Origin: Bacteroidota bacterium
Lineage (GTDB): Bacteria > Bacteroidota > Ignavibacteria > SZUA-365
NCBI GenBank assembly: GCA_014860565.1
Contig: JACZJN010000071.1
Coordinates: 1,184-65,183, forward strand
Length of the DNA: 64,000 nucleotides
Direction of reading: 5' to 3'
Position 1 is the stretch's first letter. Every line of letters starts with the position of its first letter. The notes beneath the pieces were generated by a model. That model had not been told where the DNA came from and did no database searches. It saw only the letters and a program-made list of their open reading frames with translations. Positions 24,543-50,036 of this stretch are shown here, in pieces. The translations under genes and the position numbers were made by a program.

Positions 24543-25805
24543 ATGAATACATCGAAGCACATCGACATTGTCATCCTCGGGGCCGGATACGGAGGCATCA
24601 GCTGCGTGACAAGGCTGTCGCGCCGTTTTCGCAAAAAGACGGATGTACGCATCCACCTCGTCGACCGCCACACCTATCATCTGCTTGAAACGCGTCTGCA
24701 CGAACGTGCCGTACGCGAGTCGGAAATCACTGTCCCGCTTTCAAGATTTCTGGCGAAGCGGCCGAATGTGGCTTTCCATCTCGGCGAAGTGACGCATATC
24801 GATCTTAATGACCGTTACGTAGAACTTGATTTCGGGATGACCGATACCACCTCGGCGCAGCCGCGTCGAATCCGCTATGACTACCTCGTCATTGCGTTGG
24901 GAAGCAAGACCAATTTCTACCAGATCCCCGGCCTTGAGCAGCACGCCTTTCAGCTCAAGGAACTGGAGGATTCGGAGCGTATCCGCGCGCATACCGAGCG
25001 CATGTTTGCCATCGCGGCAACGGAAACAAACCAGAACAAGCGAAAGGAATACCTGCGCTTCGTGATCGGCGGAGGTGGACTGACAGGCGTAGAGCTGGCG
25101 ACGGAGATGGCCGAACGCTTCGACGCACTCAGTGAGCAATATCATCTTGACCATTCCGAGCCGGAAATGGTACTGGTCGAGCTTTCGGACCGCATCCTCC
25201 CCTCTCTCGACGGGAAGCAAGTGGCGCGGTCGACCGAGGCCATGCAGGCGATGGGAATCCAGATTTACACGAACACGCGGGTCACCGGCATGCGCGAGGA
25301 GGAAGGGAGGCTTGAGGTGCTGCGCTCCCCTGGCGCACCCATTCCCACACGCACGATGATTTGGACTGGAGGGATTCGGATCTCGGATCTGATACGACGC
25401 AGCGGAGCGGAAACCGGTCCACAGGGGCGTGTTATCGTCAACGAGAGTCTCCAGGTCAGGCAGTACCCGGAGGTGTTTGCCATCGGCGACAACGCGTTGG
25501 CTATCAATCCGAAGGGTGGCAAGACGGTTCCCACCGCGGCACAGTTCGCTCTGCAGCAAGGCTATCTCACCGCGGATAATCTCGACCGATTGATCCGTGG
25601 GCGCACACTCAAGGAATACCATCCGAAAGTACTTGGGGAGGTCGTATCACTGGGGAAGCATCTTGCCGTGGGATGGGCCGCACTGCCTGTAGGTGCACAG
25701 TTCCGTTTCCTTGGCTTTCTTGGAAGCCTGGTCAAGCGGGCGATAAGTGAGCGCCATATTTTCCTTTTATGGAAAGAGCGTCAGAACTGGACCGGGCACT
25801 GGTAG
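24543..25805 (+). CDS. ndh: Type II NADH dehydrogenase family FAD oxidoreductase
   Basis: GAGYGG, GGGLTGVE, WTGG, FAIGD, AQFALQQG. Confidence 0.8.
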   Translation: MNTSKHIDIVILGAGYGGISCVTRLSRRFRKKTDVRIHLVDRHTYHLLETRLHERAVRESEITVPLSRFLAKRPNVAFHLGEVTHIDLNDRYVELDFGMTDTTSAQPRRIRYDYLVIALGSKTNFYQIPGLEQHAFQLKELEDSERIRAHTERMFAIAATETNQNKRKEYLRFVIGGGGLTGVELATEMAERFDALSEQYHLDHSEPEMVLVELSDRILPSLDGKQVARSTEAMQAMGIQIYTNTRVTGMREEEGRLEVLRSPGAPIPTRTMIWTGGIRISDLIRRSGAETGPQGRVIVNESLQVRQYPEVFAIGDNALAINPKGGKTVPTAAQFALQQGYLTADNLDRLIRGRTLKEYHPKVLGEVVSLGKHLAVGWAALPVGAQFRFLGFLGSLVKRAISERHIFLLWKERQNWTGHW

Positions 25806-25820
25806 CCGCGGCTGTCATAT

Positions 25821-25860
25821 AAAAACACAGATGGCCACGTTCGATACGCGGCCGTCTGTG
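25821..25860. terminator. Terminator hairpin with U-tract on the - strand; probably also ends ndh
   Basis: CACAGATGGCC...GGCCGTCTGTG with AAAAA on the left. Confidence 0.75.
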
Positions 25861-25901
25861 CTCTCTCTTCAATCGAATACCATCTCATCTTGTCTCAACT
25901 A
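25821..25901 (-). ncRNA. Candidate sigma54-dependent small RNA (about 80 nt)
   Basis: Lies between a consensus -24/-12 promoter (25927-25912) and a hairpin plus U5 terminator (25860-25821); no meaningful ORF fits inside. Confidence 0.6.
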
Positions 25902-25911
25902 TCCATTTGAG

Positions 25912-25927
25912 TGCAAGCATCGTGCCA
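25912..25927 (-). promoter_or_regulatory. sigma54 (-24/-12) promoter
   Basis: Minus strand TGGCACGATGCTTGCA = TGGCACG-N4-TTGCA with exact GG-N10-GC spacing. Confidence 0.8.
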
Positions 25928-25980
25928 AAGGTGAAACGGGCAATTCTGATTCATTTTGATCCACCGTGGAGCAAAGGGAT

Positions 25981-26017
25981 ACGGATTTCGATCCGTGGCG
26001 TTCGGATTACGAACGCC
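25981..26017. promoter_or_regulatory. Putative tandem enhancer (UAS) sites
   Basis: Dyads ACGGAT-N4-ATCCGT and GGCGTTCG-N5-CGAACGCC; shared core CGGATTwCGAwC at 25982 and 26003 (21 bp apart), 80-116 bp upstream of the predicted +1. Confidence 0.55.
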
Positions 26018-26038
26018 TAAAGCGAATTTCCTGCAAAG

Positions 26039-26084
26039 AAAAAGGCCGGGATCATGCACTTGAGGCAGATCAACCGGCCTTTTT
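26039..26084. terminator. Terminator of the 26136-26975 gene
   Basis: AAAAAGGCCGG...CCGGCCTTTTT. Confidence 0.7.
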
Positions 26085-26135
26085 CCGAAAATGGTGAGGT
26101 TCAGTGGCGGAAAAGACTTCCGCAGGATTACTATT

Positions 26136-26975
26136 CTACAGGATCGCGAGGCGCTGAAGCTGTACGCCAGCTGACGTCTCGAGACGAAGAGTATATACTC
26201 CGCTGGGGAGAGAAGACGTGCTGAAAGGAATAATATGATGTCCCGCTTCAAGATTGGCGTTATTTATAAGCGTGGCAACATTACGGCCATAGCTGTCGAC
26301 CATCGTGACATTCACCGGCATTTCGCTGTGGAGCCCAAAGGAAAGCGTACCAAAGCGCGTGAAGGAGTCCACATTGTGCTGCCAGATCACGAAGGAATTC
26401 GGCACCATGCTTGGCATAACGCAGATTGCCGGCGTCGGCATGCTGCTTCCACTCGCGGCCACCTGGCGGAGGCGATAGTATGTTACCCCGTGCACACCGG
26501 ATTCGTCAAGAAAGCTGTATCCCTGACCCTTTTGACGGGGATTCACGCGCGAATAGGAAATAGTTGCCCATTTTTCATCTGCCTGCGAGCGACGTTCCAC
26601 CACAAATCCCAGTGCCTTGGCGCCAGGGGTCACCGTCCAGTTCAGACGGACGAGATCCTTGACGAAAGAACCTTCAAATGAGATGAAATCAGGCAGCTGT
26701 TCATCGTGCCTGATAATGGAAGCGGGTGCAGGGAGGACGGAAGCAGGCTCCATGCTCGCGAAGGACGTCAGTGCTTCAGCATGCATGAAGCGCGCTGCTG
26801 CGGAGGAAAGCGTCGGGCGTGCATCGCGATACTCGTCGCCGGAGGGCGCTGCAACAGAAGACAATGCAGCTTCGCCAGTCAGACCGGCAAATTGCACATT
26901 CTGCAGCGAAGGTTCGGCTGCGCCCACACTGTAAATCAGCAGAAGCGCAATGGCTGTGAAAAGGAAGCGATACAT
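26136..26975 (-). CDS. Secreted protein with Ig/FN3-like domain and T9SS CTD; no catalytic domain seen
   Basis: VRLNW...GFVVERR...YSFLD...YYRLRQV; LPSGVYTLRL. Confidence 0.75.
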   Translation of the reverse strand: MYRFLFTAIALLLIYSVGAAEPSLQNVQFAGLTGEAALSSVAAPSGDEYRDARPTLSSAAARFMHAEALTSFASMEPASVLPAPASIIRHDEQLPDFISFEGSFVKDLVRLNWTVTPGAKALGFVVERRSQADEKWATISYSRVNPRQKGQGYSFLDESGVHGVTYYRLRQVAASGSSMPTPAICVMPSMVPNSFVIWQHNVDSFTRFGTLSFGLHSEMPVNVTMVDSYGRNVATLINNANLEAGHHIIPFSTSSLPSGVYTLRLETSAGVQLQRLAIL

Positions 26976-27109
26976 ATTTCTCACCAAGTTCTTAATGACT
27001 AACAAAGTTCCAGTCAAAGAACAAGTGAGAGTGGAGAGAGATTCAAGAGAGTGAGGGAAGAAAACTAAAGCATTTCATCTTGAAAAGCAAGAGAAAAATT
27101 GCGATGCAG

Positions 27110-48879: not shown

Positions 48880-50036
48880 GCGACGTCACCGCAGGAGCGA
48901 CCAATATTTCCCCGGGCGATCGCCAGGCCTTTCAGCGCCGCCACGGTATTATCGGCAGAAGCACGGAAATCCGTGAGGTCGTCGATACGATCATGCAGGT
49001 GGCCCCCACCGACATTACCGTGCTGGTGACAGGTGAAAGCGGCACAGGCAAGGAAGTCATCGCGAAAGCCATTCACGGTGCCAGCCGCCGCGCAGCGCGC
49101 CGGTTCATTCCGGTCAACTGCGGTGCCATCCCCGAAGGTATTCTCGAGAGCGAACTCTTCGGACATGAGAAGGGCTCGTTCACCGGCGCCGTGGAAACCC
49201 GCAAAGGCTACTTCGAACTGGCCGACGGCGGAACGATCTTTCTTGATGAAATCGGCGACACGCCGATCTCGACACAGGTCAAACTGCTGCGCGTTCTGGA
49301 AAGCGGTGAATTCATGCGGGTCGGCAGCTCCGAGCCCAGGAAATCCGATGTGCGCATCATCGCCGCCACCAATAAAAGCCTCGATGAGGAAGTGCGCAGC
49401 AAGCGATTCCGGCAGGATCTCTATTTCCGTCTGCGTTCGGTCAACATCCGTATCCCCCCGCTCCGCAATCGACGCGGCGACGTCCCGCTGCTGGTAGAGT
49501 CTTTTCTGCTCAGCCTTGCCGGCGAAGCTCGCAAAGACATCCTCATAACCGACGACGGCATGGCCGCCCTGATGAGGCACAGTTGGCCCGGAAACGTGCG
49601 CGAGCTGCGGAATGTGATCGAGAGCATCATCATACTCGAACGAGGCAATGTCGTCGACGAGCACGTGGTGGCGAAGTACCTGCATCTCATGGAGGAGCCG
49701 CACGACGAACGCTCCCTGCCCATGCACCTCGGAAAGGCTCCCGAGCAGGCCGAGCGCGAGCTGATTTTCCGCCTTCTCTGGGAAATCAAGACCGACATCC
49801 AGGAACTTCGCGGGATGGTGGGCGAGCTGCAGCACCGACCACCGCTTTCCCTCCCACCTGGAGATAACGACCATGGAGGCACGGTGAACATGGACGAGAT
49901 GACGCTGCGCGGCATGGAAGAAGAGCTGATCGCACATATGCTGCACCGCTTCCACGGCAACCGAAGGCTCGCCGCGGAGGCATTGAACATAAGTGAGCGA
50001 ACTTTGTACAGAAAAATCAAAGATTACGGACTGTGA
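48876..50036 (+). CDS. sigma54-interacting AAA+ regulator (Fis HTH), no sensory domain
   Basis: [43 protein letters not shown]. Confidence 0.93.

Follow-up and report, generated by a model that had tools for sequence, protein, structure and literature searches.

The window analysed here, a stretch of 64,000 nucleotides on contig C139 of a draft genome assigned to the Bacteroidota (G000), contains a 330-bp gap that extends from the stop codon of an ndh-type NADH dehydrogenase gene (25803-25805) to the stop codon of a minus-strand gene (26136-26138). The ndh gene occupies 24543..25805 on the plus strand and encodes 420 aa with a Pfam Pyr_redox_2 match (E 3.3e-44). The gene facing it, referred to below as the distal gene, occupies 26136..27017 on the minus strand from a putative start and encodes a secreted protein with a T9SS-type C-terminal tail, to which the Por_Secre_tail models give weak matches (PF18962, 19.6 bits; TIGR04183, 18.8 bits; both below the curated cut-offs). 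Read along the minus strand, the gap opens with the terminator of the distal gene (26039..26084; -27.8 kcal/mol, z -4.47), a hairpin with a U-run. Beyond it lie a putative upstream activator site, consisting of a 7+7 inverted repeat around GTTCG-N5-CGAAC (25997..26017), and a second dyad (25981..25996) that overlaps a conserved CGTAT box (25983-25979). A sigma-54 promoter of the form TGGCACG-N4-TTGCA, with the sequence TGGCACGATGCTTGCA, is found at 25912..25927 (25927-25912 in the direction of transcription), its -24 GG being located 81 nt downstream of the centre of the activator-site dyad. It is followed by a 41-nt tract (25871..25911), by a purine-rich GAAGAGAGAG box (25861..25870) and, with the box immediately on its 5' side, by an intrinsic terminator composed of a hairpin and five U residues (25821..25860; -29.8 kcal/mol, z -7.0), all on the minus strand; a terminator scan agrees with this last assignment. 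The original prediction had read this arrangement as a complete regulatory RNA gene, and all of the elements that it listed, namely both dyads, the promoter, the tract and both hairpins, are present at these positions, including the strong terminator about 80 nt downstream of the promoter. Its observation that no credible reading frame fits between promoter and terminator is also upheld, in that the interval holds only an ORF of 3 codons and one of 35 aa (25888-25781), the latter reading across the terminator and on into ndh in antisense.

Taken by itself, the count of promoter motifs carries no significance. The TGGCACGATGCTTGCA site is the sole match in the window to the sigma-54 pattern at one mismatch or fewer, 0.85 being expected, and at least one such match arose in 60 of 100 shuffled sequences. 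Across the genome there are 16 relaxed promoter matches, 5 of them strict including that of the window, with about 8 expected from base-composition arithmetic, and 11 dyads as compared with 5.5 expected. The elements stand above chance because they are conserved in relatives, not because of these counts. The site has GG at -24 and GC at -12 in the fixed spacing of sigma-54 promoters (TGGCAC-N5-TTGC) and the upstream site described above, and the genome encodes both the sigma factor and activators. The rpoN gene, whose presence the original prediction had marked for confirmation, is a 506-aa open frame on contig C16 (PF04552, 195.8 bits), and the sigma-54 activator domain PF00158 is present in 21 frames, in 17 cases with an E value no higher than 3.6e-24. 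One of these activator genes is located in the window itself (at about 48948-49448 on the plus strand, equivalent to G000:C139:50131-50631; PF00158 E 2.5e-71 in a 434-aa frame), approximately 23 kb from the promoter in the gap.

Only two of the 11 genomic dyads are found near a sigma-54-like site, that of the window and one at C117:17736. The dyad on C117 is positioned 102 nt from a strict TGGCACG-N4-TTGCA promoter, behind which lies an intact gene; its 418-aa product carries a signal peptide and a Por_Secre_tail domain (41.6 bits). This second locus (L024, G000:C117:16308-17756, minus strand) thus combines dyad, strict promoter and intact gene. Orthologous sites are present in G001:C101 and G002:C35, and contig C117 carries no PF00158 activator gene. 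A composite pattern, defined as the dyad followed after 65-95 nt by TGGCAYG-N4-TTG, was searched for in 23 genomes of the family with the reversed pattern as control. Seven sites were recovered in five of the seven genomes of the genus (G000 included), none in the 16 genomes from other genera of the family, and the reversed pattern gave no match in any of the 23. At all seven sites the dyad centre is separated from the -24 GG by either 80-81 or 102-103 nt, two classes that differ by two helical turns, and a signal-peptide gene follows at six; the window's site is the only one followed by a terminator. The promoter is therefore genuine, as originally proposed, given the seven composite sites against no reversed controls and -24/-12 columns that do not vary in aligned relatives, and the enhancer-like sites upstream of it are likewise real and in helical phase. 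From their sequences, these sites define a putative small, genus-specific sigma-54 regulon in which a GTTCG-N5-CGAAC enhancer precedes genes for secreted proteins with T9SS-type tails. The sigma-54 regulon of Flavobacterium psychrophilum is reported to include exported proteins (PMC9723704), and the genes downstream of the sites in this genus similarly encode exported proteins.

Several further observations concern the promoters and secreted proteins of this genome. The other strict sites in G000 are at C19:20418, C117:17642, C132:28381 and C166:5240, and at least three of these four have a start codon within about 100 nt (ATG, or GTG at C117). Two of them also have an AGGAG-type ribosome site, and the products encoded downstream are apparently exported proteins. 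Searches with tblastn returned several dozen loci in G000 that correspond to paralogous secreted proteins, which combine an N-terminal 'LNWNT...GFEIERK' module with a T9SS-type tail; several copies are located on C132, near the strict promoter at C132:28381.

The history of the gap becomes visible only when relatives are aligned through ndh, used here as a synteny anchor for 14 genome loci (74-91% ndh identity) and five metagenome loci (79-91%). A BLAST search with the 361-nt gap against 40 relatives recovered the hairpin and the end of ndh in G004 and only the end of ndh in G018 and G019, a result that resembled plain non-conservation, since the homology can be seen only via ndh synteny. Four relatives (L018, L006, L007 and L008) have not one but two genes convergent to ndh, both for tail-bearing secreted proteins. 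The distal gene of each is the ortholog of window 26136-27017, at 52-66% identity (66% in L018). The ndh-proximal gene encodes a product of 216-218 aa, counted from the start of the signal peptide, and the proximal proteins of the other relatives are 44-61% identical to that of L018. The L006 protein scores 23.9 bits against the T9SS type A sorting-domain model, above the cut-off of 23, and the L018 protein has no match to the sorting-domain models. A sigma-54-like promoter precedes the proximal gene in all four loci, that of L007 being a TTGAT variant, and a perfect dyad is present in three of the four, with a half-site in L007.

It is clear from the alignment of the window with these relatives (alignment A1) that the elements upstream of the proximal gene and those in the gap are homologous, as the distal terminator, the dyad, the CGTAT box, the -24/-12 elements and the leader blocks AGTTG and TCGATT occur in the same order. 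The -24/-12 columns are invariant across the five aligned loci and the activator site is nearly so; the second dyad is partly kept in L018, L006 and L008. The stem of the distal terminator is retained in L018 and L006, with outer pairs that are A-U in L006 and the window and G-C in L018. Both leader blocks of the 41-nt tract are shared with the 44-nt leader of the proximal gene in L006, and the tract is best described as a remnant of the 5'UTR of a lost gene. On the other side, the GAAGAGAGAG box aligns with L018 and L006 (alignment A2) and also with L030 and L031, and the hairpin with the one behind the proximal gene in L018, L006 and L007 (A2) and again in L030 and L031, two short metagenome contigs (91% and 84% ndh identity) that hold the same gene 3' end and terminator. 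Box and hairpin are located 9-15 nt past the proximal stop codon in the relatives, and the purine-rich box is thus a conserved 3'UTR and terminator flank and not the seed of an sRNA. Alignment of the orthologous gap thus had two outcomes: promoter, dyad and hairpin are conserved, and the non-coding unit that they delimit in the window is not. Nor is the interpretation as a complete regulatory RNA gene supported, because the homologous promoter drives a secreted-protein gene in L018, L006, L007 and L008.

Other loci recovered through ndh differ from this arrangement. Both promoter and proximal gene are missing from L009 and L010 (82-84% ndh identity), which indicates that the locus has changed more than once and is labile, and which weighs against the history proposed below. 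In the more distant L015 and L017, GC-rich repeats of approximately 40-70 nt that contain palindromes and resemble REP elements follow ndh in place of a tail-bearing gene. The database titles of L008, L015 and L016 name Chromatiales or Ectothiorhodospiraceae, and their ndh genes cluster with loci labelled Bacteroidota; these entries are probably mislabelled.

We conclude, with a probability of roughly 85%, that the unit in the window is the deletion scar of a secreted-protein gene that its closest relatives retain. Approximately 0.67 kb is absent from the window (about 666 bp relative to L006), essentially the whole of the coding sequence, and what remains is the old 5'UTR of 41 nt joined at about 25871/25870 to some 10 nt of the old 3'UTR. 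No ortholog of the proximal gene was found elsewhere in the genome, where tblastn with the four proximal proteins detected paralogs alone, none above 36.5% identity; the best match (32-35%) is the distal gene, itself a paralog of the lost gene at about 35% identity. The genome is a 223-contig draft with a completeness of 97.8%, which leaves some room for a copy in the remainder. In the ndh tree the window falls together with L018 and L030, two carriers of the gene, with moderate support (85/87, not starred, in a tree most of whose deeper forks are not resolved), and L006/L031, L007 and L008 fall outside this group. With the window nested among gene carriers, loss in its own lineage is the simplest reading. 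The junction is not an assembly error, as it is bridged by contigs from elsewhere: X2, from another sample of the same study (25640-26055), and X4, from another study (25698-25903), both span it with no differences, although the contig of X4 reaches no more than 31-33 nt into the promoter side. Runs X2-X4, which like X1 consist of DNA contigs, cover the window only in parts; X1 contains the whole of it, is possibly where the assembly came from, and was left out of the support for the junction. None of the six loci recovered by the metagenome scan with ndh carries a second scar.

The history that we propose starts from an ancestor in which a gene of about 650 bp, with a secreted product bearing a T9SS sorting tail, would have been convergent with ndh, driven by the sigma-54 promoter, activated through the GTTCG-N5-CGAAC dyad, and ended at the hairpin beside the ndh stop codon. 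The terminal lineage would then have lost approximately 0.67 kb, with one end no more than a few bases from the start codon and the other about 9 nt beyond the stop codon. This loss possibly took place between short (A)TGAA direct repeats flanking the coding sequence, in a microhomology-mediated event: L006 and L018 have the motif at the start codon and again just ahead of the GAGAGAG box, L030 and L031 have it ahead of the box, and the window has a single TGAA at the junction, a match of 4-5 nt only and observed in relatives, not in the ancestor itself. The remainder would comprise activator sites and promoter, followed by 41 nt of 5'UTR, by 10 nt of 3'UTR and by the terminator. As an event this is of an ordinary kind, a gene-loss remnant, in an unusually clean form. 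As with other gene-loss remnants and orphan promoters, the flanks are conserved, sister lineages have the coding sequence, and no copy is found elsewhere; unlike them, the reading frame has been excised unusually cleanly and both control elements remain consensus-perfect. The promoter matches the consensus at 16 of 16 positions and the dyad is intact at 7+7, a lack of decay that calls for either a recent deletion or selection on these elements, and which in the latter case counts against a plain scar.

How the remnant behaves at present can be projected from these elements. Because an intact paralog on C117 is still preceded by the same dyad and promoter, the genome presumably retains the cognate activator, and with a consensus-perfect promoter the orphan site should fire together with that of C117. 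Its product would be an RNA of about 81 nt, from approximately 25901, a start placed by the -24/-12 spacing rule, to 25821, comprising the leader, the GAAGAGAGAG box and the terminator hairpin. No significant structure is predicted for the 5' tract (z -0.72), and the low energy of the whole predicted RNA (z -5.15) stems from the terminator. If the scar reading is correct, we consider the odds somewhat better than even that such a short by-product transcript is made; we infer continued transcription from the intact control elements, and likewise that the RNA would as yet have no selected function. The short RNA is probably a by-product and not an established regulatory RNA gene. To this extent the idea of an sRNA-like transcription unit probably survives, because the unit would probably still yield a short transcript, as a by-product of gene loss. 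The suggestion that the RNA is antisense to the 3' end of ndh does not apply to the coding sequence, since the 3' end predicted for the RNA is located 16 nt past the ndh stop codon; what stands of it is a possible sharing of the 3' hairpin, which may also serve ndh as a terminator on the other strand. On the plus strand (25847-25870) the shared hairpin is followed by CTCTCTCTTC and there is no U-run on the ndh side. The complementary GAAGAGAGAG box, conserved in L018, L006, L030 and L031, might also matter for the ends of ndh transcripts.

The rival that deserves the most attention is a dedicated, selected sigma-54-dependent sRNA of about 81 nt, acting either through base pairing or as a protein sponge, and possibly newborn, having been exapted from the scar. 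The consensus-perfect promoter, the perfect dyad and the strong terminator form an intact transcription unit with no sign of decay, the activator is probably present given that C117 has the same dyad, contigs from two studies show the same junction, and rearrangements of genomes can, according to Raghavan et al. (2015; PMC4350180), create intergenic regions that give rise to new sRNAs. The unit thus has a promoter and a terminator of its own around a non-coding stretch, and it is conservation and family membership that are lacking. The part from promoter to tract is present by BLAST in none of the 40 relatives, a relaxed pattern of promoter, gap and GAAGAGAGAGCAC retrieved no stretches from the collection of genome contigs, a gene follows every homologous site examined, and the unstructured tract is simply an old mRNA leader. 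Over the whole 64-kb window the Rfam scan produced no match at gathering score to any family, and a permissive scan of 25700-26200 returned four matches at chance level (E 1.2-3.7), none of them on the tract. We regard a selected sRNA as quite unlikely. An extension of the same thinking would take the locus as a snapshot of the birth of an sRNA, in which one clean deletion created a regulated 81-nt RNA that is co-induced with the C117 gene, and in which promoter and dyad are kept by selection either on the RNA or on the dyad as an activator decoy; this bolder reading, too, is tentative and we think it unlikely to be correct.

The remaining alternatives can be set aside with greater assurance. 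That the promoter now drives a small protein is suggested by the ATG of the 35-aa ORF (25888-25781), 13 nt past the predicted transcription start; the ORF nevertheless crosses the terminator hairpin and runs antisense into the 3' end of ndh, it is preceded only by a weak GAGA where other sigma-54-driven genes in this genome have AGGAG-type sites, and it exists only through the fusion and so has no homolog in relatives. This candidate was rejected on the ground that the frame overruns the terminator, and we hold it to be highly improbable. Equally improbable is a regulatory role for antisense RNA reading through from the orphan promoter into ndh. The promoter does face the 3' end of ndh, whose stop codon is only 96 nt away, and yet the -29.8 kcal/mol hairpin and U5 intervene, and relatives have the same convergent layout and hairpin with the promoter driving a protein gene; this reading was rejected as well, the RNA being expected to stop 16 nt past the ndh stop. 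An assembly artefact, by which the coding sequence was dropped or collapsed in the metagenome bin, might be suspected in a draft of 223 contigs for which X1 may be its own source. Two contigs that cross the junction with no differences, and for which no alternative joints or loose ends are listed, make this explanation barely credible, and the point that survives from it is that contigs omit rare variants, so that a minority intact allele may remain in the population.

Parallels with characterized systems are instructive in placing the remnant. Like other sigma-54 promoters with enhancers, the site has the canonical GG/GC spacing and an upstream palindrome that keeps to one face of the helix, 80-103 nt from the -24 element; it differs in that at the window's site alone the gene under control has been lost, and a cognate activator is presumed. 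Sigma-54-dependent sRNAs include Qrr, GlmY/GlmZ, CrcZ, NrsZ and Pxr. The resemblance of the window unit to these is one of layout only, with a promoter and activator sites, a short non-coding stretch and an intrinsic terminator; unlike them it has no Rfam match and no conservation as a non-coding unit, and it consists of an mRNA leader fused to a trailer. With the origin of sRNAs by rearrangement, as described by Raghavan et al. (PMC4350180), the locus has in common a lineage-specific intergenic change that yields a potential new short transcription unit, and differs from it in that a ready-made promoter and terminator were here joined by one deletion and the transcript is a predicted one.

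These results provide a caution for the annotation of sRNAs, as the anatomy of promoter and terminator in a single genome is insufficient for calling sRNA genes. A unit that looks perfect can be the empty frame of a protein gene that has been lost, and only relatives reveal it. If the orphan unit in this lineage is transcribed, it would be a natural case in which a regulated short RNA was born in one mutational step, and one-step creation of an RNA in this manner, if true, bears on the origin of bacterial sRNAs.
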